Below, one piece after another: positions 400-36,161 of a DNA stretch of 64,000 nucleotides. The notes under the pieces were generated by a model that did no database searches, had not been told where the DNA came from, and saw only the letters and a program-made list of their open reading frames with translations. The stretch spans positions 25,267-89,266 of the forward strand of contig CAWGUE010000011.1 in the NCBI GenBank assembly GCA_963825595.1, given 5' to 3'. Source of the stretch: an uncultured delta proteobacterium. Its GTDB lineage: Bacteria; Desulfobacterota; Desulfobacteria; Desulfobacterales; SG8-13. How positions within the stretch are numbered: position 1 is the first letter of the stretch; each line of letters begins with the position of its first letter. The translations under genes and the position numbers were made by a program.

Positions 400-403
400 A
401 ATC

Positions 404-5347: not shown

Positions 5348-5625
5348 GATAGTCCTTGTAATAAGAGATCCCGCCATTTTTTCACAAACCACTCGAAAAC
5401 GGCAAACTACTTGAAAAAGTATTACGCAAAGCCGCTGGCCTAAGTCCCTGAGTAGATGGATATGGTAGCAGGGTTGCCGAGCAAAGACGTGCCATCTCTC
5501 GATGCACCTTTTTGTGCGGTGACGGTTTCATTGAGAGATGTCATGCAAGAAAATTCTATCTTCCATAGGCTAAGTAGCGGCCTGCTGTTGTCTTTCGATT
5601 GTTTTTATCATGCAGGTCGCGCGTT

Positions 5626-9900: not shown

Positions 9901-10036
9901 CGTCCGCGTCGATACCGCTGCGCAGCCCCTGGAAGTCCTGGACAATACCATCCAGGCGGATTGGACGTCACTGCCCGGTCAGACAACCGCGCTCAACAGC
10001 ACGGGGATAATCGGCGCTGACGGCAGCGAGGACGGC

Positions 10037-19700: not shown

Positions 19701-21887
19701 GACGGGTTTGCGGCGGATCCGGGCACCGTGGCCGGGCGCGATGAGTTTCTCGGAACGGGCGGGTCGCTTTATTTTCTAAAACGGCAGGACGTATTAATGG
19801 GATCCGAGCGGGTACGCATCGAAGTCCGCGACAAGGCTTCCGGGATTGTTCTGGAGGTCAAGAATCTGACGCCAGTCCTCGATTACGACATCGACTATCT
19901 GCAAGGACGAATCCTGCTGGCCCAACCCCTGTCAGCAACGGCAGACGACCGTCTGCTGGTGCGCAGTGACTCGATCAGCGGGAATCCGGCTTTTCTGGTG
20001 GTTCGTTATGAATTCACCCCCGGATTCGAAGAGCCGGACACGCTGGCGGTCGGCGGCAGGGTTCATTACTGGCTCAATGATTACATGAAGGTCGGTGTGA
20101 CCGCCAGCCGAGATGAAGAGGCGGACATCGAAAACAGGTTGGGCGGAGCGGATGTGACCCTGCGCAAGTCCGCGGAGTCTTGGCTCAGGCTGGAAGCCGG
20201 CAACAGCAAAGGGCCGGGAGTGCTATCGACGACCTCCGTTGACGGCGGTTTCGACTTTATTCCCGCAGATTCCTTCGGCGGTGTCGAGGCCGACGCGTCA
20301 GCCTATCGGGTCGATGCCAGTGTCGGCGTCAAGGATTTCTTCGACAATGGGCGCGGCCGTGTCACCCTTTACATGCAGGATCTGGGGGCGGGGTATTCGG
20401 CACCGGGCCTGGCCACTGCCCGGGATCTGACCCAATACGGCGGAACGGCGGCGCTACCTATTACCGACCGTTTAGGTGCTCAATTAAAGGTGGATATGCA
20501 AGTTCAGCGTGAGGGACTCGACACGCAGACCGGCGAGCTGGATCTTGATTACCGGATGGGTGAGCATTGGACTTTGAGTTCCGGTGTGCGTCATGACAAC
20601 CGCGAGGACAACTCGCCGGTCGTGCCGGAAACCCAGGAAGAGGGTGACCGCACGGATGCAGTGGCCCAGCTGCTGTACGATTCCCATAAACGCTGGACAA
20701 CCTATGGTTTCGCCCAGGGAACGATTCAGACCAGCGGCAATCGCGAGGACAACAACCGCATCGGTGCCGGTGGCAGTTGGCGTTTGACCGACCGGTTCAA
20801 CGTGGCCGGTGAGGTTTCCGGTGGAGATCTTGGCCCGGGTGGCCGGCTCGGGACCGAGTACCTGTATTCCGACCGGACCACGCTTTACAACAACTATACC
20901 CTCGAGAACGAACGCACCGATAATGGCCTGCGCGCCAGGAAGGGCAACTTGGCTTCCGGTTTTCGCACGCGATATTCCGACAGCGCCAGCGTCTACCTCG
21001 AAGAGCGCTATGTCCATGGCGATGTGCCCACCGGGCTGACGCATGCCACCGGTGTTGACCTCGCGCCGACCGATCGCCTTAATTTAGGCGCGAATCTCGA
21101 TTTCGGCACTCTCGTGGACCGACAGACCGCGGCCGAATTGGAGAGATTCGCATTGGGTGTGAGCGCCGGTTACGGGTTCGACAAGTTAAAGATCGCCAGC
21201 GCCCTGGAATATCTGGTCGAAAATACCGAGCAGCCGGATACCAGTTTTTCCAAACGCACCACCTGGTTGTTTAAAAACAGCTTAAAGTACCAACTGTCCG
21301 AAGACTGGCGCATCATCGGTAAATTCAATTATGCCGTGAGTGAGAGTTCGCTGGGAGAGTTCTTTGACGGCGATTACACCGAAGCGGTCCTGGGCTACGC
21401 GTATCGCCCCGTCCAGAATGACCGTCTGAATGCGCTCTTCAAATACACGTATTTCTACAATCTGCCGACCGCCGATCAGGTGGCCGGCACGGCTACTGGC
21501 GTCATTCAGCGCAGCCACATCGGTGCGGTGGATGTCATATACGATCTGACACCCCGCTGGACTGTGGGCGGCAAGTACGCCTACCGCCATGGTCAGGTGG
21601 CCCAGGATCGGGAAAATCCGGAGTTCTTCGACAGTCGTGCCCACCTGTATGTGCTCCGTGCGGACTGGCACTTCCTCCACCGCTGGGATGCGCTTTTCGA
21701 GTTGCGCCTACTCGATCTGCCGGATGCACAAGACAGCCGCAGCGGGGCGCTGGTGGGACTATACCGCCACCTTGGCAATCACATGAAGCTGGGGGTCGGC
21801 TATAACTTCAGTGATTTTTCGGATGATCTGACCCAAATGGATTACCGCCACCAGGGGCTGTTCATCAATGTGATCGGGAAGATGTAA
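16773..21887 (+). CDS. Giant outer-membrane protein: signal peptide, three tandem OmpA_C-like peptidoglycan-binding modules, long beta-rich C-terminal region (putative barrel)
   Basis: Three OmpA-type units are present: HFIGHTDNLPL..GLSRERA..GRGDSQPVADN..NRRVEVQVW; KFIAYTDNIPL..GLSKAVA..GRGASQPVASN..NRRVEVEFW; RFVGYTGNKRL..GLSIARA..GRGYVQSDD. The C-terminal ~700 aa has an alternating aromatic/Gly strand pattern (KLGVGYNFSDF, RWTVGGKYAYRHGQ). It starts 4 nt after the adhesin stop. Confidence 0.8.
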   Translation: MMETMSLTPIMLMRFLVKRGIAILCLCAVTAAVAEADFSGETGVRETASRGATSEIHLPADQPFTPWIHDPAIFEENEGDRTEMGETIEQDAKTIKVDNLVPSIHFDLGEAEIPADYLERLREVLDSMRDRLNVRLHFIGHTDNLPLRDALQKRYGDNVGLSRERAGTTAEYCQRALNLPPEAISYEGRGDSQPVADNATEEGRQLNRRVEVQVWYDEIVEKLVETEVIVPREVSRIKVCRTETVCKLRYKEGHSHRARVKNLITPFHYDEGMADVPETFLRQVGHALNNLRAKQNLVVKFIAYTDNIPLKARDERIYGDHTGLSKAVARRISLAVQEDMQLPNAAIESEGRGASQPVASNDTQQGRALNRRVEVEFWHDDPLQDLPDEPQLCPDAAGAETVVRIYNASSGPIDPILFANGQPVVPAGYTEHLQRVMDEISDKTHVRLRFVGYTGNKRLDRRTAAVYGDDIGLSIARARRAMGAVSKQMGLTEGQAEFDGRGYVQSDDVVNAGFIESDTSRVRVQVVYDEPVLLDDYEGVEITPITREVTTADPFGLNLMRITVDGKPLDDPGKCSSDVQRCTDVALENAQIQFKYDSLKPVPRLNVTAWPRTIRYQDKEDTAFAENLVRFRLYTNYRSFIERAEVRIFREKQSVRDVPIAVIAMDADGMAQWQAEFAVFSAPVEKLQYLVRVYDKQGYFDETKTQPLWVVDQIDPSAAEADPGQELLVGYGESRIASRNIPLSGGTVQVYGTAIPQGHRVWLAGYAVPVDNTGSFVAEQILPGGIHTVEVGVLDNFGNGELFLRDLELKKSDWFTVGIADLTVSGNKTDGPAELLAPDTPEYSEDMSFAGRLAFYTNGQFKNGWSLTASADTREGPLDEIFTNFMDKSPEALFRRLDTDVHYPTFGDDSTVVEDAPTKGKFYVKMEKDETYGLWGNFMIGYNDNDLVRVDRGLYGANLHYQPLGITGFGEPRLLLDGFAADPGTVAGRDEFLGTGGSLYFLKRQDVLMGSERVRIEVRDKASGIVLEVKNLTPVLDYDIDYLQGRILLAQPLSATADDRLLVRSDSISGNPAFLVVRYEFTPGFEEPDTLAVGGRVHYWLNDYMKVGVTASRDEEADIENRLGGADVTLRKSAESWLRLEAGNSKGPGVLSTTSVDGGFDFIPADSFGGVEADASAYRVDASVGVKDFFDNGRGRVTLYMQDLGAGYSAPGLATARDLTQYGGTAALPITDRLGAQLKVDMQVQREGLDTQTGELDLDYRMGEHWTLSSGVRHDNREDNSPVVPETQEEGDRTDAVAQLLYDSHKRWTTYGFAQGTIQTSGNREDNNRIGAGGSWRLTDRFNVAGEVSGGDLGPGGRLGTEYLYSDRTTLYNNYTLENERTDNGLRARKGNLASGFRTRYSDSASVYLEERYVHGDVPTGLTHATGVDLAPTDRLNLGANLDFGTLVDRQTAAELERFALGVSAGYGFDKLKIASALEYLVENTEQPDTSFSKRTTWLFKNSLKYQLSEDWRIIGKFNYAVSESSLGEFFDGDYTEAVLGYAYRPVQNDRLNALFKYTYFYNLPTADQVAGTATGVIQRSHIGAVDVIYDLTPRWTVGGKYAYRHGQVAQDRENPEFFDSRAHLYVLRADWHFLHRWDALFELRLLDLPDAQDSRSGALVGLYRHLGNHMKLGVGYNFSDFSDDLTQMDYRHQGLFINVIGKM

Positions 21888-22010
21888 TAACGTGAATATT
21901 GAACGAAAACTACAAACAGTTGTGAATCAGCCATGATGAAGAATGGTTATACAGTTTTTGGAAACAATGCTAACCGCTTGCGGTTTGAGCATTCGATCCT
22001 TCGGATGTCT

Positions 22011-22050
22011 TATTTAGTGCCCATCCGCGGTTTCATAAAGGGCACTGATA
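22011..22050 (+). repeat. Hairpin repeat module (agtgccc...gggcact) 3' of the OmpA-barrel gene
   Basis: tatttagtgcccatccgcggtttcataaagggcactgata recurs as a reverse complement at 44921-44957, 3' of an unrelated minus-strand gene. Both copies are in the sense orientation of the upstream gene. Confidence 0.6.
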
Positions 22051-22266
22051 AGTTTCCGATCCAGAAATGTGCAATTTTTCGCAAGTTCAAGGAAATCAAG
22101 GAATTGTGCGGAGGCATACTTCTGTATGCCGCACAAGCGATTTCGCCGATTGACGCCGAAATTGCGGAAAAGGGCCATTTATGGACGGAAACTAATTAAG
22201 ACACCGGAAACCCGACGCTTATTACGGGGATGACCTTTAATGACGAACCAAGGTGAGGAGGCCAAC

Positions 22267-22779
22267 ATGCGCTGCTGGCTGAAAGCGATTATTCTGGGGA
22301 TTTCAATGTTTGGGTTGAGCCTTGCGGCTTATGGCCAGGAAGTCTCCAGAGAACAAATCAAGGGCCTTGATGAACAGGTCCAGGAAATCAAGAGTGATGT
22401 TCTGCGTATTGCCGCGGAACTGCACCAGCTTGAAGAGAAGCTACTCTATCCATCCAACACGCAGGTTGCCGTCTTCGTGTCGCTTGCCAACGACACCACG
22501 TTCCGTCTCGACTCGGTCGAGATCCAGCTGAGCGGCAAACCGGTCGCCCATCACATCTACACCTTCAAAGAGCTTGAAGCTCTCCAAAAGGGTGGTGTGC
22601 AGCGCATTTACACCGGCAATATCCGAACCGGTGGACATGATCTACAAGTGACCGCTACCGGAAAATCCGCCGGAGGCACCGATATCCAGCAAACGGATCG
22701 CTTCAGGGTCAATAAGGATGTGGGCCCCAAAATCGTGGAATTATCACTTGCAGCCCATAGCATTGCGCTTAAGGAGTAA
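22267..22779 (+). CDS. Secreted 170-aa protein (signal peptide + short coiled coil + beta-rich domain), first gene of motor cluster
   Basis: A GAGGAGG RBS precedes the ATG at 22267. MRCWLKAIILGISMFGLSLAAYGQ looks like a signal peptide. I recognise no family. Confidence 0.6.
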   Translation: MRCWLKAIILGISMFGLSLAAYGQEVSREQIKGLDEQVQEIKSDVLRIAAELHQLEEKLLYPSNTQVAVFVSLANDTTFRLDSVEIQLSGKPVAHHIYTFKELEALQKGGVQRIYTGNIRTGGHDLQVTATGKSAGGTDIQQTDRFRVNKDVGPKIVELSLAAHSIALKE

Positions 22780-22786
22780 GTCGTTC

Positions 22787-24679
22787 ATGTCCAGGCTGAT
22801 CGTTTTACTGACAAGTCTGCTGTTCTTCATTGCCTCTTCGGCGGCGGCCGATCGTTCCGCTCCCAAAGAGCTGAAGGATCTCTATTTCGGAGAGGCCTTG
22901 TACTGCGCCTATCAAGGAGACTGGTTCGATTCGATCGCCAGGCTCGACATCGAGCTGGGACAGCATCATGGGCTCGATGAACCTGAGCGCGACACTCTAT
23001 ACTACCATATCAACCAGGCCGAGTTCGCCGTGGGTGATTTTGAACTGGCCTACCGGATGCACCATCGCGCCGGACGAGCTATTAAACGGGTCATCGAGGG
23101 CAACGTTGAGGAGCAGGTGCGCAACGAGGCCATCTTCCGTCTGGCCCGGATCTACTTCCAGAAAGATCAGCCGGTCAATGCCCTGCATGCCGTGGACCGC
23201 ATCCATGGCGACGTTCCTGAAAGGATTCGCGACGACGTGGCTTTCCTGCGCGCCCATATCCTCATGGCCAACGGCCGTTTCGTCGAGGCCGCAGAAATTC
23301 TGCAAAGGCTTCAGGGGGTCAAAAGCCTTGAAGGATTCAGTTCCTATAACCTCGGTATTGCACTGATGAAGGACGGTAAGGTGCAGGAGGGGCGCCAGTG
23401 TCTCGACCGTACGGGCCAGATCAGCGCCAAAGACCCCGCCACACTGGCGATAAAGGACAAATCGAATTTGGTCTTCGGCACCAAATTGCTGGAGGAAAAC
23501 AATTACGAGGGCGCCAAGCAGGTCCTCGACCGGGTGCGTTTGACCGGCCCCTTCTCCAACCGGGCCCTGCTGGGCGCAGGCTGGACCGATGCCTTCGAGG
23601 AACGTTTCGACAGGGCTCTGGTGCCCTGGAGTATCCTGGTTAACAGAGAGGTCACAGACGCTGCGGTTCAGGAAGCCATGCTCGCCGTACCCTATGCATA
23701 CGGCAAACTGAACGTGCACAGTAAAGCGGCGTTGCTGTACGGCAGTGCGCTCGAGAGGTTCGGCACCGAAATCGACAAGCTTGACGAATCCATCAAGAGT
23801 ATCCGCGAAGGACATTTTCTAAAAGCCCTGGTGCGGCAGGAACTGAAACAGGATGCCAATTGGGTCGTAAAGCTGCGCCGGCTGCCGCAAACACCAGAGA
23901 CATACTACTTGCTGGAATTAATGGCCTCCCACGATTTCCAGGAATCTCTTAAAAACTATCTTGATCTGGAGCAACTGCGCCAAAAGCTGCAAGCCTGGGA
24001 AGGGGATCTGGATGCTTTCGAAGAGATTATTGAACAGCGGCGGGCATATTACCATCCACTGCTGCCCGCCATCGACAGGGAATTTCGGCGGTTGGACTCG
24101 CAAATGCGCCTGCGCCTGGAACAGCGCGACCGTATCGAAAAACGCCTCAAGACCATGTTGGTTGTCCCGAACCCGGACTATCTGGCGACTTCCACGGAAA
24201 GGATCGTCAGCGAAAAGATCAATCATCTGGAACGCAACCTGTCGGCCGGTGGAGCGGCCATACCCACAGTGATCGGCGCCCGCATCGAACGTTTGCGGGG
24301 CGTTCTGAAGTGGAACATCTACACCGACTATGACCGACGATTCACTGAAGCGCATAAGCATCTTCAGGACCTGAATAGTGAGATCGACATGTTGAAGAAG
24401 CAGTATACCGCCTTTGTGCGCACCCGCCAGGCCGCCACGCAAAGTTACCAGGGTTACGGGGATGCGATCCGCCGCCAACGAATCCTGATTCGGGAGGCGC
24501 ATGAAAAAGTAGGACAACTGATGGCGCGTCAGGGCCATATGCTGGAACTCATGGCCGTAAATGAACTCAGCCGGCGTCGTGATCGGCTGGCCGAGTTCCA
24601 AATCAAGGCACGCTTTGCCATGGCGGACAGTTACGACCGTGCCACCAGGGCCCAGACCCAGGAGAGAGTGGGACGATGA
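22787..24679 (+). CDS. Secreted TPR-like + long coiled-coil protein (630 aa)
   Basis: An AAGGAG RBS precedes the ATG at 22787. The signal peptide is MSRLIVLLTSLLFFIASSAAA. The N-terminal half is TPR-like and helical, and the C-terminal ~300 aa is heptad-rich (LKNYLDLEQLRQKLQAWEGDLDAFEEIIEQRR). The stop overlaps the next start (ATGA). Confidence 0.65.
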   Translation: MSRLIVLLTSLLFFIASSAAADRSAPKELKDLYFGEALYCAYQGDWFDSIARLDIELGQHHGLDEPERDTLYYHINQAEFAVGDFELAYRMHHRAGRAIKRVIEGNVEEQVRNEAIFRLARIYFQKDQPVNALHAVDRIHGDVPERIRDDVAFLRAHILMANGRFVEAAEILQRLQGVKSLEGFSSYNLGIALMKDGKVQEGRQCLDRTGQISAKDPATLAIKDKSNLVFGTKLLEENNYEGAKQVLDRVRLTGPFSNRALLGAGWTDAFEERFDRALVPWSILVNREVTDAAVQEAMLAVPYAYGKLNVHSKAALLYGSALERFGTEIDKLDESIKSIREGHFLKALVRQELKQDANWVVKLRRLPQTPETYYLLELMASHDFQESLKNYLDLEQLRQKLQAWEGDLDAFEEIIEQRRAYYHPLLPAIDREFRRLDSQMRLRLEQRDRIEKRLKTMLVVPNPDYLATSTERIVSEKINHLERNLSAGGAAIPTVIGARIERLRGVLKWNIYTDYDRRFTEAHKHLQDLNSEIDMLKKQYTAFVRTRQAATQSYQGYGDAIRRQRILIREAHEKVGQLMARQGHMLELMAVNELSRRRDRLAEFQIKARFAMADSYDRATRAQTQERVGR

Positions 24680-27600
24680 ACTGGATCCGGCTATCTATAT
24701 TGACGCTATTGCTGATTTTATCGGCCTGCCAATCGATCGGTGACAAGGATACGATTGCCGGTTTGCGTCACGTGCAGATTGAGATCAAGGAAGAAAAGAT
24801 CGAAGGCGGGCTCGACAAGGCCATGCTGGGTTATCAGCGCTTTCTGGAAGAAACGCCGCAGTCGGACTTAACACCCGAGGCCATTCGTCGCCTGGCCGAT
24901 CTGAAGATCGAAAAAGAGTACGGTACGTTCACCGAGGGTACCGAAACTGCGGATCAGGATTCAGCAGCGGTGTTGCCCGCTCCCAAACCGGCAAAGGCGC
25001 TCTTCAAACACTCCCCTGCCAAACACCGGATCCCGTCAAGAGGGGGAGAGCGCGTACCGGCACCTGCTCCGACTCTGGAGTCCGAGACGGATTTTGAAAG
25101 GCGCGCGACCCGACCGGCGCATGTGCCTGCTGCCGCAGCGCCTATGGGTGAACACACCGAAGGGATGGATGATCTTGAAAGGGCCAGCGCCCGTGAGGCC
25201 ATCGAGCTCTACAATAAACTGCTCAACGATTACCCCCTTTACGACCGCAACGACCAGGTGCTGTACCAGATGTCCCGTGCCTATGAGGAATTGGGACAGC
25301 CTGAGGAAGCCATGACGGTCATGGACCGGATGGTCCGCGAATTTCCGCGCTCCCGCTATATCGATGAGGTTCAATTCCGGCGAGCTGAACGCTTCTTTGC
25401 CTACAAACATTATCTGGATGCCGAGGACGCTTACAAAAGCGTTGTGGATATCGGTGTCGGTTCGTCCTTCTATGAGCTTGCCCTGTATAAACTGGGCTGG
25501 ACGTTCTATAAGCAAGAGCTCTATGAAGACGGCCTGCATAACTTCGTTGCCCTCCTGGATCACAAGGTATCCGTGGGGTACGATTTCAAGCAGACCGAAG
25601 ACGAGGCTGAACACAAGCGGACGCAAGACACCTTCCGCGTTATCAGCCTGAGTTTTTCCAACCTCGGGGGATCCGATTCCGTGGTGGAATACTTCTCCCG
25701 TCTCGGCAAGCGCAGTTACGAGGACAGCGTTTACAGCAACCTGGCCGAATTTTACTTCGACAAGCGCCGTTATGCCGACGCCAGCGCTACCTATAACGCC
25801 TTCGTGAGCCGCAACCCATTCCACAAGGTAGCGCCGAACTTCCACATGCGGGTCATCGAAATTCATACCGCCGGCGGCTTCCCCAGTTTGGTCCTCGAGG
25901 CCAAAAAGGCTTTCGCCACCACCTACGGGTTGAAGGCCGAATACTGGACGTATCACGAATCCAGCGAGCGTTCGGACGTTCTGGGTCATTTAAAAACCAA
26001 CCTGACCGACCTGGCGAATCATTATCATGCTTGCTACCAGAACCCGAAAATGGCCGCCGAGAAACCGTCCAATTTCGAAGAGGCATTGCATTGGTATCGA
26101 GAGTATCTGACCTCATTTCCAATGGATACCGAATCGCCGGGCATCAACTACCAGTTGGCGGACCTGCTGCTCGAAAACAAGTCGTTTGGCGCAGCGGCAG
26201 TGGAGTACGAGAAGACCGCTTACGACTACCCATCCCACGACAAATCCTCCCACGCCGGCTATGCGGCGGTTTGCGCCTATCGGGAACACCTGGGCGCCGC
26301 CACGCCGGAAGGCAAAGATTGGATCAAGCGTGAGGTCGTGCGCAGTTCGCTCAAGTTCGCCGATACTTTTCCAGAACACGACAAGGCCGCTATCGTCCTC
26401 GGGGCGGCGGCAGACGATCTTTACGGCATGGAAGAATATGAGCAGGCGCTGGCTGCCGCGAACACACTCCTTGAGATATTCCCCGACACCGATGTTGATG
26501 TCGTCCGATCGGCCCGGCTGGTCATCGCCCATTCGTCTTATGAGCTTCAGCGATACAGCGAAGCCGAGACCGCTTATCTGGAAGTACTGGCCTTGCTGCC
26601 AACAGGCGACAAGACGCGCGATGGCCTGGTCGATAACCTGGCGGCATCGATTTACAAGCAGGGCGAACTGGCCAAAGCCGATGAGGATTATCGGGGTGCG
26701 GCGGACCACTTTTTGCGGGTGAGCCGGATGGCGCCAACCTCTACTATTCGGCCAACCGCTGAATACGATGCTTCCGCGGCGCTGATACAACTCAAGGACT
26801 GGGAGATGGCGGTCACCGTGCTTCTCGGATTCCGAAACACCTTCCCCGGGCACGAGCTGCAGCCCGAGGTGACCAAGAAGATCGCCTATGTCTACCGGGA
26901 AAACGGCCAACTCTCCCTGGCGGCCAGCGAATACGAGCGTATCGAAACAGAATCCAATGACGACGAAATCAGGCGTGAGGCCCTTCTGGTGGCAGCGGAA
27001 TTGCATGAAAAGGATGGCAACAGCCTTGGCACGCTCGAGGTTTACCGGCGGTATGTGAGCTATTTCCCTCAACCAGTGGAGCTTAACCTGGAAACGCGCA
27101 ACAAAATCGCCGATATCCTGAAGGCGCAGAACGACCGGATGTCCTATCTGAAAGAGCTCGAGGCGATCGTTGCGATTGACGCTTCTGCGGGTGCCGACCG
27201 AACACCCCGGACGCGTTACTTAGCCGCAAAGGCCGCCTTGGTTCTGGCCGAATCGCATTATGATCAGTTCGTGGCCGTCAGGCTGGTCAAACCCTTCGAG
27301 GTTAATCTGCGTAAAAAGCGCGATTTGATGAAGGCCGTCACGACTGAATTCAATAAACTCATCGATTATGAAATCGGAGAGATCACGGCCGCATCGACAT
27401 TCTATCTGGCCGAGATTTACGCCCACTTCTACAAAGCCTTGATGACCTCTGAGCGTCCTGACGGGCTGAGTCCCTTGGAACTGGAAGAATATGAACTGGC
27501 CATCGAAGAGCAAGCCTATCCGTTCGAAGAGAAGGCCATCGCCGTTCACGAGAGTAACCTCGAGCTGATCTCACGGGGCGTCTACAATGAGTGGGTCGAC

Positions 27601-27879
27601 AAGAGCCTGCAGAAATTGGCGGCACTTGTACCGGCCCGCTATGCCAAACCGGAGGAGAACAGCGGCATAATGAGTTCACTGGATACATTTGTTTTCGTTG
27701 TTGACCGACCTCCCGTTTCTGCTCAACCGGAGTCTGAGCCCGGGTCCACGGTGGAGGAAGATGGAGCAGGGGAGGGTGAACAGATCCAAGGACCCGATAC
27801 GGCCACAGGTGATGACCCTGCAGAGCCTGAGGAATTTAAAGATCCAGGGATGACAGCGGCGGAGCGCGCCGCACGTTAG
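24676..27879 (+). CDS. Large TPR-repeat lipoprotein (1067 aa), GltD/AgmU-like by architecture
   Basis: Lipobox LLILSAC. Multiple TPR-type units are present (YQMSRAYEELGQPEEAMTVMDRMVREFPRSRY..., ALYKLGWTFYKQELYEDGL...). The tail is acidic. Confidence 0.7.
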   Translation: MNWIRLSILTLLLILSACQSIGDKDTIAGLRHVQIEIKEEKIEGGLDKAMLGYQRFLEETPQSDLTPEAIRRLADLKIEKEYGTFTEGTETADQDSAAVLPAPKPAKALFKHSPAKHRIPSRGGERVPAPAPTLESETDFERRATRPAHVPAAAAPMGEHTEGMDDLERASAREAIELYNKLLNDYPLYDRNDQVLYQMSRAYEELGQPEEAMTVMDRMVREFPRSRYIDEVQFRRAERFFAYKHYLDAEDAYKSVVDIGVGSSFYELALYKLGWTFYKQELYEDGLHNFVALLDHKVSVGYDFKQTEDEAEHKRTQDTFRVISLSFSNLGGSDSVVEYFSRLGKRSYEDSVYSNLAEFYFDKRRYADASATYNAFVSRNPFHKVAPNFHMRVIEIHTAGGFPSLVLEAKKAFATTYGLKAEYWTYHESSERSDVLGHLKTNLTDLANHYHACYQNPKMAAEKPSNFEEALHWYREYLTSFPMDTESPGINYQLADLLLENKSFGAAAVEYEKTAYDYPSHDKSSHAGYAAVCAYREHLGAATPEGKDWIKREVVRSSLKFADTFPEHDKAAIVLGAAADDLYGMEEYEQALAAANTLLEIFPDTDVDVVRSARLVIAHSSYELQRYSEAETAYLEVLALLPTGDKTRDGLVDNLAASIYKQGELAKADEDYRGAADHFLRVSRMAPTSTIRPTAEYDASAALIQLKDWEMAVTVLLGFRNTFPGHELQPEVTKKIAYVYRENGQLSLAASEYERIETESNDDEIRREALLVAAELHEKDGNSLGTLEVYRRYVSYFPQPVELNLETRNKIADILKAQNDRMSYLKELEAIVAIDASAGADRTPRTRYLAAKAALVLAESHYDQFVAVRLVKPFEVNLRKKRDLMKAVTTEFNKLIDYEIGEITAASTFYLAEIYAHFYKALMTSERPDGLSPLELEEYELAIEEQAYPFEEKAIAVHESNLELISRGVYNEWVDKSLQKLAALVPARYAKPEENSGIMSSLDTFVFVVDRPPVSAQPESEPGSTVEEDGAGEGEQIQGPDTATGDDPAEPEEFKDPGMTAAERAAR

Positions 27880-27950
27880 AGTGTTGACCAGGGTGGCCTG
27901 CCGGACGCTGCTTTGCAGTGAGAGCGGGTCGAGGGAAGGGAGACGCAGCG

Positions 27951-28646
27951 ATGAGCGCTATATATATCGGAAACGACGCAAGGCTAAAAAAACGACTCTG
28001 CACCGGATTGATCGTTTTGGCGATGGTGCTCTCGGTTCTTATCGGCTGTGCCACCGATGGGAAGGTTTCGCCGAGCACGGTTGCGGACAACCGGACAGAA
28101 GTTAAAGAGACCTCTGTGATGCGGCTTGAAGATGGTCGGGAAGGGTTCCTCATATCGGAAGTTCCCCAGATGGACGAGGCGTCGCGCAGGGACTTCGAGC
28201 GTGCCGTGGCCCTGCTTTATGAACAGAACTACGACACGGCCATTGAACTTCTGGAAAAGATCATCGAGCAGTCTCCCGGCGTTACGGCGCCCTATATCAA
28301 TATTGCGATAGCCTACCAGAACGTTGGCAAAACGGAACAGGCCGAGGAGCATCTAAAAACCGCACTCGGGCTGGTTCCCGGGCACCCGGTGGCAAGTAAC
28401 GAATATGGGTTGTTGTTTCGCAAAAGCGGGCGATTTGCCGAGGCCCGCGCGATGTATGAGAAGGTCCTGACGCGCTTTCCGGATTATTATCCGGTGCACA
28501 GAAACCTGGGGATACTCTGCGATCTGTATATGGATGACCTGACCTGTGCCCTCGAACATTACGAGATTTACAGCCAGGCCATGCCCGAAGATCGGCAGGT
28601 CAAATTATGGATTACCGATTTGCGCGCCCGGTTGGGACGCGATTGA
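27951..28646 (+). CDS. Small TPR-repeat lipoprotein (231 aa), GltE/AglT-like by architecture
   Basis: ATG at 27951 with lipobox VLIGC. TPR units: AVALLYEQNYDTAIELLEKIIEQSPG, NIAIAYQNVGKTEQAEEHLKTAL, GLLFRKSGRFAEARAMYEKVL. Confidence 0.7.
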   Translation: MSAIYIGNDARLKKRLCTGLIVLAMVLSVLIGCATDGKVSPSTVADNRTEVKETSVMRLEDGREGFLISEVPQMDEASRRDFERAVALLYEQNYDTAIELLEKIIEQSPGVTAPYINIAIAYQNVGKTEQAEEHLKTALGLVPGHPVASNEYGLLFRKSGRFAEARAMYEKVLTRFPDYYPVHRNLGILCDLYMDDLTCALEHYEIYSQAMPEDRQVKLWITDLRARLGRD

Positions 28647-28734
28647 AATCGAGGTCTCAAGGCCTGAATGCCGGAGCCGGCCCATGGGCCTGCTTCAGGA
28701 TGAATATTCAGGGCTGTGCCTAAGGAGAGGGAGG

Positions 28735-29022
28735 ATGAATCGCAAATTAGCACTGTGTCTATGCATTGTCCTATTCCCGGCCGTCTTGGCCTTGGCTCAG
28801 GATGTGGACAAAGACCAGGAGTCGGAAGCCAAGGAGCTATCCGGTATGTCCATTGTCGGCAACGATGAAGCGCCGAAGTCTCTCTATATCGTTCCCTGGA
28901 AAAGCTCGGAAATCGGTATGGAGACCAATTTAAACATGCTGTTGAACGACGGCGATGGGCCGGTGGATCGCGATGTTTTCATGCGGCAGCTTGAGTTTTA
29001 TCAAATCAGCACCGCGAGATAG
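28735..29022 (+). CDS. Small secreted protein (95 aa) preceding the ExbB gene
   Basis: An AAGGAGAGGGAGG RBS precedes the ATG at 28735. The signal peptide is MNRKLALCLCIVLFPAVLALAQD. The longer ORF-track start at 28546 overlaps the upstream gene and has no RBS. Confidence 0.55.
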   Translation: MNRKLALCLCIVLFPAVLALAQDVDKDQESEAKELSGMSIVGNDEAPKSLYIVPWKSSEIGMETNLNMLLNDGDGPVDRDVFMRQLEFYQISTAR

Positions 29023-29142
29023 TGTCCGTCCAGAAATAAGGAAGCCTCGGCTTCGCCCCTTACAGAACTCTTTTCAGGAAGAGCGAGGGGAATAAGTTGA
29101 TGGCGCCTGAATAACTTCGTCAATTTGTTTAGGAGGAAAGTC

Positions 29143-29799
29143 ATGGGATTCTATTCAATTGTGGCATTTTTTCAGAAGGGTGGAATGTTCATGTACCCCA
29201 TTCTGTTCGTGTTTGCCATTGGCACTGCCATCGCAGTGGAGCGTTGGTTTCAGTTGACCCGTGTCCACAGCGCAAACAGCAAAGCATGGAATGTGGTGCA
29301 ACCGGCATTGGCCAAAGGAGAGTTCGAAAAAGCCCGCCAAATGGTCAGCAAGGACAAATCAAGCATGGCGCAAATGCTGGGGATGGGACTCGCGCGCCAG
29401 GGTGCGGTCCGGCGTCGCGAGGACATCGAAATCGCCATGGAAGAGAGCATGATGGAAATCATCCCCCAGTTGGAAAAGCGCACGCCCTATGTGGCGCTGC
29501 TGTCCAATATCGCCACCCTGCTGGGACTGCTGGGCACCATTATGGGGTTGATCCAGGCCTTTACCGCGGTGGCCAATGCGAACCCGGCCGAGAAGGCCGA
29601 TCTGCTGTCCGCCAGTATCTCGGTGGCCATGAACACCACGGCCTTTGGTCTGATGTCGGCGATTCCGCTCCTGCTCCTGCATGCCAAGCTGACGTCGACC
29701 ACGGGGCATATCGTTGACAGCCTGGAGATGGCATCGGTCAAGGCGCTGAACAGCATCTCCAATTTCGCCAAGCGCCAATTCGAGGCGAGCTCATCATGA
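29143..29799 (+). CDS. MotA/TolQ/ExbB proton-channel family protein (copy 1)
   Basis: An AGGAGG RBS lies 7 nt upstream of the ATG at 29143. It has three TM segments and the conserved LLGLLGTIMGLIQAF and AMNTTAFGL blocks of the TolQ/ExbB family. Confidence 0.9.
   Translation: MGFYSIVAFFQKGGMFMYPILFVFAIGTAIAVERWFQLTRVHSANSKAWNVVQPALAKGEFEKARQMVSKDKSSMAQMLGMGLARQGAVRRREDIEIAMEESMMEIIPQLEKRTPYVALLSNIATLLGLLGTIMGLIQAFTAVANANPAEKADLLSASISVAMNTTAFGLMSAIPLLLLHAKLTSTTGHIVDSLEMASVKALNSISNFAKRQFEASSS
29373..29788 (+). repeat. Near-identical direct repeat, arm 1 (3' two-thirds of exbB copy 1)
   Basis: By hand alignment to 32604..33019 there are 12 mismatches in 416 positions and no indels. The preceding 230 nt of the two genes differ at about 52 positions. 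Confidence 0.9.
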
Positions 29800-30287
29800 C
29801 CAGACGACATCATAAAAAAATACGAATGCGGACGACACCCGAACTGGATGTGACCACTTTCATGAACCTGATGGTGGTGCTCATACCGTTTCTACTCATT
29901 AGTGCCGTCTTTTCACGTGTGGCGATCATGGAGTTGAGCGTTCCGACCAGTGCCGGCGGGATGGCTTCGAACACACCGAACTTTGCCATCGAGGTGATTG
30001 TCCGACAGGCAGGATTTGAGATCGCCAATGGGTCATCAGTAGAGGCTGCCGTTCCGAAAAAAGACGATCAGTATGATATGGAAATGCTTTCAAAATTGCT
30101 CTTGCGCCTGAAGGCCCAGTACCCGGATAAGGAAGACGCGACCATCTTGATGGAACCGGGCATAGAGTATGATTATCTCATTCAGGTCATGGACGCTGTA
30201 CGGAGTGCCAAAGTACAGGAGGAAGACAGTGAAGAGGTTCAGAAAATATTACTCTTTCCCGACATATCCATAGGAGATGCGCCATGA
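29796..30287 (+). CDS. Biopolymer transporter ExbD/TolR family protein (1 of 2)
   Basis: The basic N-terminus plus the single TM LDVTTFMNLMVVLIPFLLI carries the conserved Asp-in-TM context. There are ATGA overlaps on both sides. Confidence 0.85.
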   Translation: MTRRHHKKIRMRTTPELDVTTFMNLMVVLIPFLLISAVFSRVAIMELSVPTSAGGMASNTPNFAIEVIVRQAGFEIANGSSVEAAVPKKDDQYDMEMLSKLLLRLKAQYPDKEDATILMEPGIEYDYLIQVMDAVRSAKVQEEDSEEVQKILLFPDISIGDAP

Positions 30288-30778
30288 GAAGTAGCCGACG
30301 TATGCGACGGATGGGGCGTAACAGGATCAAGGGGACCGGTTTACTCCTGACATCGCTGATGGATATCTTTACCATTCTGGTGTTCTTTCTGCTTTTCCAC
30401 TCATCCGGCAGTGATGTTCAGGAGCCACCCAAGGACATCCATCTGCCCGAATCCGCCGTCGAAAGCAAACCGAGGGAAACCGTGGAGATCACTATCAGCC
30501 CCGAATTGGTCATTGTTCAGGGTAAGGCCGTGATCGGTACCCCCGAATTGCTGGATACAGAGTTTGATACGGTTGCGGAAATAACAGAGCGGCTGAAGCA
30601 GCTCGAACGCAACATTATCGGAATAAGCACCAAAACGGTCGTTGAAAGCAAGGAGGTCACTATCCTTGCGGATAAAACGATTCCGTTCAGAGTGCTTAAA
30701 AAAATAATGTCAACCTGCACGGGCTCTGGATACGGAAGGATTTCTCTGGCCGTTATTCAGAGGGCCGATCAAAGTTAG
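30284..30778 (+). CDS. Biopolymer transporter ExbD/TolR family protein (2 of 2)
   Basis: LLLTSLMDIFTILVFFLLF TM with Asp, and a periplasmic ExbD-like domain. ATGA overlap with the upstream gene. Confidence 0.85.
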   Translation: MRSSRRMRRMGRNRIKGTGLLLTSLMDIFTILVFFLLFHSSGSDVQEPPKDIHLPESAVESKPRETVEITISPELVIVQGKAVIGTPELLDTEFDTVAEITERLKQLERNIIGISTKTVVESKEVTILADKTIPFRVLKKIMSTCTGSGYGRISLAVIQRADQS

Positions 30779-30788
30779 TGGGAATGCC

Positions 30789-32270
30789 GTGAATACATCC
30801 TTATTGGAACAGGAATTGGCGCCACTGAACGCGCAGATTGAGCAAATCCTGAAAAAACGTGAGGTGCTCGAAGGTGAGCTGCGTGTTGTAGAGGCAGAGC
30901 TCGAAAAGTTCTCCGCCGCCAGACAGAGATTCGATGCTTTGCAGGATGTCTGCAATGCCCTCGACAAACTGGGGGAACTCAAAGCGGGGCAACTTTTCTG
31001 GAAAGGGATCCCGGGAATCGAGGATGCCGCCGGACACCTGGAACGGGCGCGGGGCCGCGTTGCGCGTTTCGAGGAGAAGATCAGCGGTATTACCGAAAAC
31101 CAGGCATCTCTTCAGACCGAGGTAGATAAACGCTGCGCGGAACTGGATTACCTTTATGAAGAGGTCCGTGATGCGCACGAGCGTGAAGAACGGCGTAAGG
31201 AAGAGTTCGTTATAGAGCGTGAGATATCGGCCGTTCCTTACAGGGTGATGATCATGCCCTGGACCAAGGATGCCGAAAGTGAAAGGCGCTTCCGTCGCGC
31301 GGTGCTCGTGGCGCTGCTTTTCTGCTTTGTCTTTGGTTCTATCATTCCCCTGGTAGAAGTGCCGGTGCCGGATCAATCGGTCGCCGTGGTCGAGATTCCG
31401 GAACGATTGGCCAAGCTGGTCAAGAAGGAACCGCCCAAGCCGGCGCCGCCGCCGAAACCGGAGCCGAAACAGAGCCAGGAAGAGCCGGAAAAGCCTCGCG
31501 AAGAAAAGGCCGAACCCAAGCCGGAACAGAAAAAGCCGGATAAACCTCAGAAGGTTGCGCCGAAACCCAAACCTGTGCAAGTGGCCGACGGCGGGAGTCA
31601 AAAAGCAGCCGCCCGGAAAAAAGCCGAACGCGTCGGGGTTTTGGCATTCAAGAAGGCCTTTGCTGACCTGATGGACGAAACACCGATTGCAAAACTCGGC
31701 ACCGAAGCCCGTCTGAGCAAAGAAACTCCCCGGGTAGCTGGTCAGGCCGTGGCACAACGCTCGCTGGTTGCCATGCAGGCCAAGGGCGGCTCAAGTGGCG
31801 GAATCGGCAATGCAGGGGTCAGCCGCAACGTCGGCAGCGGCAACGCCAACCGGCTTGGTGGCGGGGGGATCGGAAGAGGGGGCGGCAGCGGCAACGGTGC
31901 GGGTTTTAGCCGGGTCGAAAGTTCCCTCGCAGATCTGACCGAATCGACCAGGCCCCTGAGCGACGGGATGGCTCTCGGACGAACCGACGAGGAAATTCAG
32001 ATCGTATTCGATCGCTACAAGGCGGCGCTTTATCGGATCTACAACAGGGAATTGCGCAAGGACCCGACGTTGCGCGGGAAGATGTTGCTGCGAATCAGTA
32101 TCGAAACCAATGGTTCGGTGTCTTTGTGCGCGGTGGAGTCGACCGATCTGGCTTCGCCTGAACTGGTGGCCCTGATTCTTGAACGCATCAAGAGGTTCAA
32201 CTTTGGCCCCAAAGACGGTGTGCCGAAAATCACCATCCTGTATCCGATCGACTTCCTGCCCGCCGCTTAG
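30789..32270 (+). CDS. TonB-like energy transducer with AgmX/PglI-type C-terminal domain and long N-terminal cytoplasmic coiled coil
   Basis: Coiled coil of about 170 aa, TM AVLVALLFCFVFGSIIPLV, and a Pro/Lys/Glu-rich spacer KKEPPKPAPPPKPEPKQ...KPKP. A Gly-rich stretch follows. The C-terminus is IQIVFDRYKAALYRIYNRELRKDPTLRGKMLLRISIETNGSV...ITILYPIDF (TonB_C/AgmX pattern). Confidence 0.75.
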   Translation: MNTSLLEQELAPLNAQIEQILKKREVLEGELRVVEAELEKFSAARQRFDALQDVCNALDKLGELKAGQLFWKGIPGIEDAAGHLERARGRVARFEEKISGITENQASLQTEVDKRCAELDYLYEEVRDAHEREERRKEEFVIEREISAVPYRVMIMPWTKDAESERRFRRAVLVALLFCFVFGSIIPLVEVPVPDQSVAVVEIPERLAKLVKKEPPKPAPPPKPEPKQSQEEPEKPREEKAEPKPEQKKPDKPQKVAPKPKPVQVADGGSQKAAARKKAERVGVLAFKKAFADLMDETPIAKLGTEARLSKETPRVAGQAVAQRSLVAMQAKGGSSGGIGNAGVSRNVGSGNANRLGGGGIGRGGGSGNGAGFSRVESSLADLTESTRPLSDGMALGRTDEEIQIVFDRYKAALYRIYNRELRKDPTLRGKMLLRISIETNGSVSLCAVESTDLASPELVALILERIKRFNFGPKDGVPKITILYPIDFLPAA

Positions 32271-32373
32271 GGTAGTGAACAGGATCATTGCAGGATATGA
32301 AAATTGAAGTTGTCGCTTTCGTAGCTCGAATGTCGAAATTCAAATTCCGGCGTTGCCGGCCCAGGAGGAAAAA

Positions 32374-33087
32374 ATGGGAATCTATTCGATGCTGGCATTT
32401 TTCCACAAGGGTGGAATGTTCATGTATCCCATCCTGCTCGTGTTTGTGGCGGGCATGGCCATCGCGGTGGAGCGTTGGTTTCAGTTGACCCGCGTTCGCA
32501 GTGTGAACAGCAAAATATGGAACGTGCTCTATCCGATGCTTGCCAAAGGCGAGTTCGACAAAGTGCGGGCCATTGTCAACAAGGACAAATCCACTATCGC
32601 TCGAATGCTGGGGATGGGACTCGCACGCCAGGGTGCGGTCCGGCGTCGCGAGGACATCGAAATCGCCATGGAAGAGAGCATGATGGAAATCATCCCCCAG
32701 TTGGAAAAGCGCACACCCTATGTGGCGCTGCTGTCCAATATCGCCACCCTGCTGGGACTGCTGGGCACCATCATGGGATTGATCCAGGCCTTTACCGCGG
32801 TGGCCAATGCGAACCCGGCCGAGAAGGCCGATCTGCTGTCCGCCAGTATCTCGGTGGCCATGAACACCACGGCCTTTGGTCTGATGTCGGCGATTCCGCT
32901 TTTGCTCCTGCATGCCAAGCTGACGTCGACCACGGGACATATCATTGACAGCCTGGAGATGGCATCGGTCAAGGCGCTGAACAGCATATCCAGTTTTGCC
33001 AAGCGCCAGTTCGAGGCGAAATCGGAATCTGCGGGTGAAAACCAGCCGGCTTCCACCGGCAAACCGTCGTTGGAAGCGGCTTCGTAG
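32374..33087 (+). CDS. MotA/TolQ/ExbB proton-channel family protein (copy 2, paralogue of 29143..29799 with 23-aa C-terminal extension)
   Basis: An AGGAGG RBS precedes the ATG at 32374. It is collinear with copy 1 at a constant offset of 3231 nt with no gaps. Confidence 0.9.
   Translation: MGIYSMLAFFHKGGMFMYPILLVFVAGMAIAVERWFQLTRVRSVNSKIWNVLYPMLAKGEFDKVRAIVNKDKSTIARMLGMGLARQGAVRRREDIEIAMEESMMEIIPQLEKRTPYVALLSNIATLLGLLGTIMGLIQAFTAVANANPAEKADLLSASISVAMNTTAFGLMSAIPLLLLHAKLTSTTGHIIDSLEMASVKALNSISSFAKRQFEAKSESAGENQPASTGKPSLEAAS
32604..33019 (+). repeat. Near-identical direct repeat, arm 2 (3' part of exbB copy 2)
   Basis: See arm 1. The two arms bracket exbD-exbD-tonB-like. Confidence 0.9.
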
Positions 33088-34321: not shown

Positions 34322-35206
34322 ATGAATGGGATGTCTGAAATTTCGACGGTGAGCCGGGCCAAATATGAATGCCTGCAAACGATACTTCAGGAGATGGAAC
34401 GTGTGCTGGTGGCTTTTTCCGGCGGGGTGGACAGCACCTTGCTCTTGAAAGCCGCGGCGGACGTCCTGGGAGACCGGGTGCTGGCCGTGACGGCCCTGTC
34501 GGCGACCACACCGGACCACGAGCGGCGGGATGCCGCCCAATTCGCCCACTCCATGGGCGTTCACCACCTGGAGATCGCATCCCATGAATTGACGATCCCG
34601 GCATTTATCGCAAACCCGCCGGACAAGTGTTATATTTGCAAAAAAAGCCGTTTCGGAGAACTCGTGCGGCTGGCATCCGAAAAAGGGATTTCCTGGGTGG
34701 TGGACGGAGAAAACATGGATGACGCTGCCGACTATCGCCCGGGGAGCCGCGCCGCAAGGGAACTGGGGGTTCGCAGCCCGCTGCGGGAGGCTGGTATGAC
34801 CAAATCGGAAATCCGCCAATTGTCTCGATGGCTGGGGCTTCCGACCTGGAACAAACCCTCTTACGCTTGCCTGGCATCGCGGATTCCTTACGGGCATACT
34901 ATTACGCCCGAAAAATTGAAACAGGTAGATGCCGGGGAAGCGTTTATCCGGGGACTGGGCATTTCATGGCAGGTAAGAATCCGGCATGAGGAAAATACGG
35001 CCCGAATCGAAGTCGAAACCGAAGCCATTGCTCGTTTCATGGACAAAGACGTTCGCCAACTGGTTGTCTCCCGTCTCAGGGCGCTGGGATTTGAATTCGT
35101 TGCGCTGGATCTGGAAGGTTACACCACCGGAAGCTTAAATCGCGTCATTGATACAGAAACCGGCATGCAAGCGGACACACCGGAAGAAAGGGTTGCCAAT
35201 GGATAA
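34322..35206 (+). CDS. larE: Nickel-pincer (NPN) cofactor biosynthesis sulfur transferase LarE (PP-loop ATP pyrophosphatase)
   Basis: PP-loop VAFSGGVDSTLLLK, DYRPGSRA, NKPSYACLASRIPYG, and a C-terminal FVALDLEGYTTGSLN. It carries Cys-x2-Cys (CYICKK) in addition to the ACLASR cysteine. Confidence 0.85.
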   Translation: MNGMSEISTVSRAKYECLQTILQEMERVLVAFSGGVDSTLLLKAAADVLGDRVLAVTALSATTPDHERRDAAQFAHSMGVHHLEIASHELTIPAFIANPPDKCYICKKSRFGELVRLASEKGISWVVDGENMDDAADYRPGSRAARELGVRSPLREAGMTKSEIRQLSRWLGLPTWNKPSYACLASRIPYGHTITPEKLKQVDAGEAFIRGLGISWQVRIRHEENTARIEVETEAIARFMDKDVRQLVVSRLRALGFEFVALDLEGYTTGSLNRVIDTETGMQADTPEERVANG

Positions 35207-36047: not shown

Positions 36048-36161
36048 GGCTCTCGCGTAGAACATCCACAGTCGGATCGCCGCCAGACACCACTTTGATC
36101 CAAGCGAATCACGGGTGTTGACAGATAACTGAAAACTTTTGGCCACAATTCGGAGGATCCA

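Follow-up and report, generated by a model that had tools for sequence, protein, structure and literature searches.

In the 64,000-nucleotide (nt) stretch of DNA from an uncultured delta proteobacterium studied here (contig CAWGUE010000011.1; "the window" always means this full stretch), ten genes, numbered p1 to p10, encode what, on sequence grounds, is almost certainly a member of the Agl-Glt core complex. This complex was described by Luciano et al. 2011 (PMC3169522), who found it in Geobacter, Fibrobacter, one betaproteobacterium (Methylibium) and several Gammaproteobacteria and gave its function as unknown. They presented it as the starting point from which the gliding and sporulation machines of Myxococcus evolved; in 2013 and again in 2020, its function was described by its authors as still unknown. 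In the window, the ten genes are preceded by those of a giant adhesin and of a 1,704-amino acid (aa) protein, u1704, that ends with a predicted outer-membrane barrel. Core, adhesin and barrel are almost always found side by side in related loci, under two gene orders, and adhesin and barrel also occur fused in a single chain. We consider it very probable that adhesin and barrel belong to the same unit as the core. The functional unit is best read as a conserved cassette of 13 parts, a 28-kilobase operon at 5391-33087 comprising a riboswitch, the adhesin, the barrel protein, nine core genes and a spare channel (Table 1). The original prediction, made from the letters of the sequence, had drawn the limits of the unit too narrowly, at 22267-33087; it reaches upstream to about position 5391, with the riboswitch, the adhesin and the barrel protein. 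For the whole—core motor plus adhesin/barrel cassette—we lean, with modest confidence, towards a proton-driven trans-envelope apparatus that would export or mechanically operate the giant adhesin.

The linkage in two gene orders and the gene fusions provide the core complex with its first named candidate cargo and outer-membrane partner, and turn an unknown function into a specific hypothesis: the motor would serve the adhesin. In a literature coverage that was incomplete, we found no paper reporting this core-adhesin-barrel linkage.

The related loci (L001 and so on) are genome or metagenome contigs. A first set of 16 genome loci was compared by tblastn with all the proteins of the window, and 80 loci were added by scanning metagenome contigs with a profile of u1704, so that about 100 related loci overall, from five bacterial groups, were available. 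These relatives are mostly metagenomic and their taxonomic labels are those given by the depositors; those from Desulfobacterales-like metagenome-assembled genomes are 88-94% identical. Protein families were scored with the Pfam and NCBIfam profile models, and RNA families by an Rfam scan of the whole window.

Table 1. Parts of the cassette, with nt positions in the window unless residues are indicated, and the Geobacter uraniireducens core genes (Table S3 of PMC3169522) that stand opposite to them
Feature	Position	Strand	Description	G. uraniireducens counterpart
c-di-GMP-I riboswitch aptamer	5391-5481	+	Rfam RF01051, 73 bits (gathering score 35), E 2e-12, model 1-87 of 87; ligand putative	
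Terminator-like hairpin	5566-5584		between aptamer and adhesin start codon	
Adhesin	5626-16768	+	about 3,700 codons if intact; Sec signal peptide at 5626 (read from sequence)	
u1704	16773-21887	+	1,704 aa; signal peptide; predicted outer-membrane protein	
u1704, three OmpA-like peptidoglycan-binding domains	residues ~80-530		Pfam OmpA, TIGR03350	
u1704, immunoglobulin (Ig)-like beta-sandwich region	residues ~590-800			
u1704, C-terminal beta-barrel module	19170-21884	+	~905 aa, predicted	
p1	22267-22779	+	170 aa; periplasmic; a signal peptide and one helix precede a beta-rich part	
p2	22787-24679	+	630 aa; GltC-like; signal peptide, tetratricopeptide repeats (TPR) then a long coiled coil	Gura_3077, GltC, 629 aa
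p3	24676-27879	+	1067 aa; GltD-like TPR lipoprotein, lipobox LSAC	Gura_3076, GltD, 1108 aa
p4	27951-28646	+	231 aa; GltE-like TPR lipoprotein, lipobox LIGC	Gura_3075, GltE, 240 aa
p5	28735-29022	+	95 aa; secreted, signal peptide	Gura_3074, gene not listed
p6	29125-29799	+	224 aa; AglR-like proton channel of the TolQ/ExbB family; PF01618 (MotA_ExbB) 87 bits	Gura_3073, AglR, 211 aa
p7	29796-30287	+	163 aa; AglQ/S-like, TolR/ExbD family; PF02472 (ExbD) 48 bits	Gura_3072, AglQ, 166 aa
p8	30284-30778	+	164 aa; second TolR/ExbD-family subunit; PF02472 50 bits	Gura_3071, AglS, 166 aa
p9	30789-32270	+	493 aa; bitopic, GltG-like transducer	Gura_3070, GltG, 484 aa
p10	32353-33087	+	second MotA_ExbB protein, AglR-like channel paralogue of p6	

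The core genes

From p9 back to p2, the sizes of the window proteins correspond one-to-one, in mirror order, to those of Gura_3070-3077 (Table 1). The same pattern of order and size is found in Marinobacter (Maqu_1602-1595), Cellvibrio (CJA_3319-3313), Shewanella (Sfri_1230-1223), Saccharophagus, Hahella and Teredinibacter, all listed in the same Table S3. Our assignment rests on gene order, size and domain type as given by Luciano et al., and on the match of p9 with the GltG model, rather than on the sequences of those strains. This model (NF033760) aligns its positions 342-645, of 650, with residues 173-489 of p9, i.e. from the membrane helix to the C-terminus. The C-terminus of p9 had been read by the original prediction as being of the AgmX/PglI type, which NF033768 confirms (58.9 bits for a cut-off of 40). 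Order, sizes, AgmX/PglI domain and GltG alignment all agree with the Agl-Glt/Nfs-like core without assigned role that had been proposed. None of the equivalog cut-offs is reached (GltG 57.7 bits for 650, GltE 27.8 for 225, GltJ 28.7 for 450, the latter matched by the C-terminal domain of p9 alone), and no AglR, AglQ, AglS, GltC or GltD model of NCBIfam matched the proteins of the window. The published core agrees with p2-p9 in its eight genes, their order and the sizes of their products, and it too is one co-directional cluster; what its description does not include is the adjoining CLIPPER adhesin and OmpA/barrel protein, p1, the riboswitch found here, and the second channel of this clade.

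Eleven genes had been announced at 22267-33087; we count ten, all on the + strand. Their listed products and domains (secreted proteins, TPR lipoproteins, MotA_ExbB, ExbD) are recovered by open reading frames (ORFs), Pfam and NCBIfam, and the three ATGA stop/start overlaps reported at 24676, 29796 and 30284 are real, the remaining gaps between p1 and p10 measuring 7-102 nt. An 88-aa ORF at 21933-22199 was considered as an extra gene; it lies outside 22267-33087, has no counterpart in any related locus and is probably not a gene.

The 170-aa, 630-aa and 95-aa proteins and the duplicated channel had been taken for parts added to the myxococcal list. This holds for the first one: p1, which matches no Pfam or NCBIfam family, is 51-94% conserved in all clades, immediately 5' of the GltC-like gene. 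Judged by its sequence conservation, p1 is a universal, previously unlisted member of the core, its ninth gene. By contrast the 630-aa p2 has the size and position of the MXAN_2541/GltC homologues of the published clusters, and the 95-aa p5 corresponds to the one additional gene that Luciano et al. 2011 (PMC3169522) reported between AglR and GltE. This small protein carries a conserved motif, SGMSIVGNDEAPKSLYIVPWKSSE, matches no Pfam or NCBIfam family, and is kept in all clades with the GltE-like gene on one side and the AglR-like gene on the other. As for the duplicated channel, p10 is an extra part in the Desulfobacterales-like clade only.

The match of p4 with the GltE model (NF033758) is weak, as indicated by the score above; its size and position fit those of the MXAN_4869 homologues. 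The GltD-like p3 exceeds the cut-off of TIGR02795, a TPR model of the YbgF/CpoB type (110.7 bits for 90.1), over four stretches, which amounts to a resemblance at the level of the repeat. Its AlphaFold2 model, with a predicted local distance difference test (pLDDT) score of 80.6, is one unbroken alpha-solenoid from residue 165 to residue 985, between an N-terminal linker and a C-terminal tail that are both disordered. Foldseek searches with this model retrieved generic long TPR scaffolds alone and nothing more specific. Cys18 of p3 is nearly invariant, and p3, like u1704, has thousands of relatives at 70-90% identity, which is striking for a TPR protein.

An aspartate in the membrane helix is essential in ExbD, TolR and MotB. 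In our alignments this Asp is invariant in all p8 homologues; in p7 it is an Asp in Nitrospirota and is changed to Asn in the Desulfobacterales-like and Geothermobacteraceae clades. With Asn in p7 and Asp in p8, the stator pair of this lineage therefore has a single protonatable Asp.

p9 begins with a cytoplasmic coiled coil (residues 1-170) and crosses the membrane by a single helix; a linker rich in Pro and Lys and then a Gly-rich stretch lead to its TonB_C-like C-terminal domain, which is conserved in all clades. The membrane helix, FRRAVLVALLFCFVFGSIIPLV, has no His in any homologue, and is thus without the His found in TonB and TolA; for transducer helices, PMC12204202 defines a conserved His of the SHLS type.

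The second channel, p10, shares 88% protein identity with p6. It is present in L001-L003, L012 and L013, all of the Desulfobacterales-like clade, and absent in Nitrospirota and Geothermobacteraceae. When 29143-29799 is aligned with 32374-33030, the DNA identity reaches 97-100% over about 60% of the length, on the 3' side, and falls to 70-87% over the 5' part; the identity at third codon positions is 90% and 72% respectively. This mosaic looks like a recent gene conversion in which the 3' part has been homogenised.

Comparison with the gliding machines

The cassette shares with the Agl-Glt and Nfs machines of Myxococcus a TolQR-like motor with two different TolR-like subunits and a GltG-type transducer ending with a TonB_C domain. 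In Agl-Glt, moreover, long TPR proteins bridge to outer-membrane barrels and the output is an adhesin, CglB in the case of gliding. The differences are several. p9 has a coiled coil where Myxococcus GltG has an FHA domain (Pfam finds no FHA match in p9); one barrel of about 900 aa in a protein with OmpA domains stands here in place of three small porin-like barrels; and the CLIPPER fibre of several thousand residues contrasts with CglB, a VWA lipoprotein. Besides, the cassette is without assigned counterparts of GltA/B/H/K, GltF, GltI, GltJ, CglB and the MglA/AglZ coupling. The conserved cassette holds no further genes, and among the proteins of group A (GltA/B/H, GltK, GltF, GltI, GltJ) the GltJ model alone was searched.

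The cassette could be a surface-motility engine, in which gliding would result from the motor displacing the giant adhesin with respect to the cell body, as in Myxococcus (Agl-Glt and CglB) or Flavobacterium (GldLM and SprB). The core is indeed homologous to the gliding core of Myxococcus, and both known gliding systems follow the general plan of a proton motor coupled to a giant adhesin. We nevertheless hold this reading to be unlikely: gliding-specific parts are not among the cassette genes—with the limit just given for GltJ, the only such model searched, and with no FHA domain in p9—and the three peptidoglycan-binding domains of u1704 argue for a static anchor. Moreover, the core genes are insufficient for motility, and gliding is undocumented in most of their carriers (PMC3169522).

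The likeness to type IX secretion and gliding is one of design only. Both have a proton motor, OmpA/TPR accessory proteins, a very large barrel made of one chain and a giant adhesin at the surface, with no relationship of sequence or fold seen, and the cassette is without the C-terminal sorting domains of the type IX secretion system and without Gld or Por genes. The type IX machinery has a GldLM motor of the 5:2 type, a 36-strand translocon (SprA), the giant adhesin SprB and its own OmpA/TPR accessories.

The adhesin and its barrel protein

The adhesin gene encodes CLIPPER/DUF11 repeats and isopeptide-forming domains: PF01345 (DUF11) reaches 154 bits in 5 stretches, TIGR01451 226.5 bits in 7, and TIGR04226 131.5 bits. 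CLIPPER is the isopeptide-bonded stalk domain of fibrillar adhesins (PMC12617251), and with such domains in tandem along a secreted protein of great length, the product has what characterizes the CLIPPER/DUF11 fibrillar adhesins. In the window the gene undergoes at least three frame changes, at about 6216, within 6760-7100 and at 9872-9891. Intact homologues align collinearly across these breaks, so that the ORFs of 944 and 2,243 aa are pieces of one adhesin gene. In-frame stops were also seen in the adhesins of L002, L012, L046, L058, L067 and L086.

The N-terminal part of the adhesin varies among loci; its last 800 aa or so are conserved in the two gene arrangements described below, the final 140 aa most strongly. 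By eye we had suspected these 140 aa to be an OmpA-like anchor. They have no Pfam match of this kind even at E up to 10, and their profile-profile comparison with the OmpA domains of the cassette gave a probability of 0.3% (E 0.18), which leaves the anchor idea unsupported.

In the 16 genome loci, u1704 lies immediately 5' of p1 and a DUF11 adhesin lies 5' of u1704 wherever the sequence is available, and the same layout occurs on contigs labelled Nitrospirota, Zixibacteria and Woeseiaceae. When all loci are pooled, 75 of 76 have the C-terminus of the adhesin just before the u1704 homologue; in the sole exception, L104, an adhesin match is still upstream, at shifted alignment coordinates. On the downstream side, p1 and the core directly follow the u1704 homologue in 69 of 82 loci. 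Among the 13 others, L012 is an artefact due to a split alignment and the remaining 12 form a distant class (about 57% identity). The gene order of this class is a second one, with the core first, the adhesin next and the barrel protein last; all six loci with a sufficient upstream flank display it, the GltG-like gene just preceding the adhesin. No conserved gene is found beyond the barrel gene in this arrangement, and for this reason the cassette is considered to end there. Overall, the cassette is carried by contigs labelled Desulfobacterales, Nitrospirota, Geothermobacteraceae, Zixibacteria and Woeseiaceae.

A gammaproteobacterial clade, found through a 54%-identical p3, displays the second arrangement in three of four genomic contexts. 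In L024, L025 and L026, adhesins of 3,376-4,702 aa are encoded immediately 3' of the GltG-like gene; that of L024 is 45-56% identical to the adhesin of the window and thus belongs to the same family. In this clade p1 is conserved at 51-54% identity.

L022 and L026 (sample ERZ25073254) share, upstream, a HerA-like gene, an S24 peptidase, DoxX, ABC-F and AhpC, followed by the nine core genes. They form a natural absence/presence pair for the adhesin: L026 has it, and L022 has unrelated genes at this place.

The gap between the barrel gene and p1 (21888-22266) measures 379 nt in the window, compared with 25-230 nt, mostly about 40-120 nt, in the related loci; it is richer in AT and contains the non-conserved 88-aa ORF. 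An inserted segment or an internal promoter are possible explanations.

The barrel family and its fusions to adhesins

Besides its OmpA domains, u1704 has no Pfam, NCBIfam or Protein Data Bank (PDB) sequence match above noise over its remaining 1,150 aa or so. The AlphaFold2 model of its C-terminal part, of low confidence (pLDDT 50), shows Ig-like sandwiches, then about 35 long antiparallel beta-strands. With this model Foldseek retrieved large outer-membrane barrels only—LptD, TonB-dependent transporters, MtrB and TamA—with TM-scores not exceeding 0.26. We take the C-terminal module to be a very large outer-membrane barrel, as predicted by this model, with no assigned family.

The last 905 aa of u1704 were searched against 1.84 billion representative proteins. 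Counted as 50% clusters, 3,356 relatives of the module pass an E threshold of 0.001 and 987 pass one of 1e-30; all of them have the module at the C-terminal end. Thus a large family of outer-membrane barrels, more than 3,000 clusters at 50% identity and without a curated model, is exposed. Most of its members measure 1,100-1,300 aa, with a short N-terminal part. However 27 of the 150 best relatives, about a sixth, are 1,900-6,889 aa long, and 26 of these 27 contain in a single chain and in this order the conserved region of the adhesin, its 140-aa terminal domain and the barrel. Most of these 26 chains also keep the Ig-like middle region between adhesin and barrel. Pfam applied to two of them, P0364 and P0379, finds DUF11 repeats in addition to the barrel.

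Only some of the long relatives carry OmpA domains: a match to the OmpA region is missing in 18 of the 27. As this region is where the split barrel protein starts, these 18 chains are not a mere read-through of adjacent genes. Natural gene fusions joining adhesin and barrel suggest that the two work together physically. By the classic gene-fusion argument, adhesin and barrel would form one functional pair, with a logic like that of autotransporters, i.e. a passenger and a C-terminal barrel.

The comparison with type V secretion goes in the same direction, the fused relatives consisting of a passenger of adhesin repeats and a C-terminal barrel and the split form resembling a two-partner arrangement. 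Yet the barrel differs: about 900 aa and 35 predicted strands here for 12-16 strands there. It is about five times larger than any type V translocator, and the module has no match to the Autotransporter, ShlB and POTRA families of Pfam and NCBIfam. Type V systems differ also by the dedicated inner-membrane motor that the cassette contains.

Relationship with the Ton and Tol systems

The original prediction had noted the absence of TonB-dependent receptor, TolB and Pal genes in the vicinity, which is literally true among the cassette proteins and the window ORFs of at least 200 aa that were scanned. It had concluded that the cluster was neither a standard Ton nor a standard Tol system. The equivalog models support this, since all five are far below their cut-offs: TolQ 55.9 bits for 221 (p6), TolR 26.5 for 127.3, ExbB 38.6 for 206 (p6), ExbD 17-19 for 153-216 and TonB 16.6 for 315.

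With ExbB-ExbD-TonB, the cassette has in common a proton-driven motor whose output domain, similar to TonB_C, works at the outer membrane. Two tandem ExbD genes, as in the cassette, occur in some Ton clusters. A TonB-type import could be imagined, in which p9 would energise the giant barrel as a gated channel taking up a large substrate caught by the adhesin; the TonB_C-like domain and the Pro-rich linker of p9, and the presence of TonB-dependent transporters among the Foldseek matches of the barrel, point in this direction. We regard it as very improbable. The low-confidence barrel model yields only the TM-scores indicated above, u1704 matches OmpA alone in Pfam with no Plug or TonB_dep_Rec domain, so that the 22-strand receptor with its plug is lacking, and the cassette has no gene for substrate processing or for an inner-membrane transporter. 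To this are added the distance of the ExbB, ExbD and TonB scores from their cut-offs and a p9 helix devoid of the SHLS-type His.

The Tol-Pal system is closer. The TolQ/TolR-type channel and stator, an arm like TolA, a TPR protein of the CpoB/YbgF type and OmpA/Pal-type domains are all found in the cassette, which differs by having no TolB, no Pal lipoprotein, a heteromeric stator pair and the nature of an accessory, mobile, adhesin-linked cassette. According to a reading inspired by Tol-Pal, the motor, the GltG-like arm and the CpoB-like TPR proteins would control the binding of the OmpA domains of u1704 to peptidoglycan, stabilising or remodelling the link between outer membrane and wall, and the adhesin would be a mere neighbour or an anchored passenger. 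TolQ and TolR are the best curated matches of p6 and p7, and TolQ is the closest solved structure to p6, at only 36 bits; p3 exceeds the YbgF/CpoB cut-off; three OmpA domains of u1704 are Pal-like; and the cassette is seemingly kept in the window beside a broken adhesin gene. Set against these points are the TolQ and TolR scores, far under the equivalog thresholds, the failure to find a TolB or Pal gene, and the accessory character of the cassette, horizontally transferred across phyla at 57-90% identity. Above all, with 18 of the 27 long relatives showing no match to the OmpA region, the OmpA tether appears dispensable in the family and the adhesin-barrel link does not. We therefore consider a Tol-Pal-like tether improbable, and keep as preferred reading a motor acting on the adhesin through its barrel.

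The riboswitch

The c-di-GMP (cyclic di-GMP) riboswitch aptamer lies about 145 nt upstream of the start of the adhesin. In L017, labelled Nitrospirota and whose adhesin is about 53% identical, a clan relative (RF03167, c-di-GMP-I-GGC, 60.2 bits, L017:1205-1281) occupies the same place. No riboswitch at gathering score was found in L038, L041, L048, L056, L095 and L104, where the start of the adhesin is visible, nor in the gammaproteobacterial loci. As it is not found in most loci scanned, the riboswitch is a feature of lineages and not a universal one.

The putative ligand is c-di-GMP; some GEMM-I aptamers of Geobacter sense cyclic GMP-AMP (cGAMP). If it is c-di-GMP, expression of the cassette would respond to this messenger at least in this lineage, which fits surface attachment and would connect the cassette with the decision to settle or to move.

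A possible mechanism

By homology to Ton, Tol and Agl, the inner-membrane TolQR-like motor would turn the flow of protons into movement of the GltG-like arm, with the p6 channel surrounding, also by homology, a p7/p8 heterodimer; AlphaFold modelling of the Myxococcus motor gave AglR5-AglQ-AglS (PMC11761067). In the same structural model, the GltD solenoid has the GltG arm lying along it and is bound by GltE, while the connection to the outer-membrane barrels is made by GltC, docked on their periplasmic ends (PMC11761067). If the cassette is built in the same way, the p9 arm and the TPR solenoids would reach the inner face of the outer membrane. There, as gene linkage and fusion suggest, the arm and the TPR chain would act on the adhesin-barrel module, either by driving or gating the passage of the adhesin through or along the barrel, or by pulling on it once deployed.

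That the adhesin is exported or deployed through or along its own barrel, with protons powering or gating the process, is an idea that we hold to be evenly poised on the present sequence evidence; a mechanical tensioning after deployment would be a close variant of it. The authors of the CglB work speculated likewise for the core in general. Such a mechanism suggests how, in many uncultured bacteria of sediments and soils, adhesins of several thousand residues with N-terminal Sec signals might get through the outer membrane. More tentatively, the barrel family, fused or adjacent to CLIPPER adhesins, could represent an undescribed outer-membrane pathway whose split form is energised by the motor, and adhesin handling could have been the ancestral job of the machine; we put this forward as somewhat doubtful.

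Several observations weigh against a motor serving the adhesin. The adhesin gene is frame-broken in the window while every other gene of the cassette is intact: either this variable repeat gene suffers from a local assembly error, or it is a pseudogene and the rest of the machine persists although its presumed cargo is lost. In the gammaproteobacterial locus L022, an adhesin is found on neither side of the nine core genes; the short contig L023, of which the upstream side alone is visible, has the same core genes and the same p3 as L022. The riboswitch is found in only two of the eight loci where the start of the adhesin is visible, and in none of the gammaproteobacterial ones. The pLDDT of the barrel model is such that the number of strands and the lumen are estimated with low confidence. 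Finally all the support is genomic, and the contact of the motor with the barrel or with the adhesin is one that we infer.

Genes flanking the cassette

On the 3' side of the cassette, three ORFs of 294, 299 and 399 aa (34322-37361, + strand) resemble by eye LarE (PP-loop), LarB and LarC, which make the nickel-pincer cofactor. Further on, a 416-aa protein encoded at 38851-40101 (+ strand) has putative copper-binding motifs of the MopE type and a CAP (cysteine-rich secretory protein) domain. The upstream flank contains an N6/N4 DNA methylase (1385-2512, - strand) and a fused ATP sulfurylase/APS kinase with PUA_2, ATP-sulfurylase and APS_kinase domains (2930-4645, + strand).

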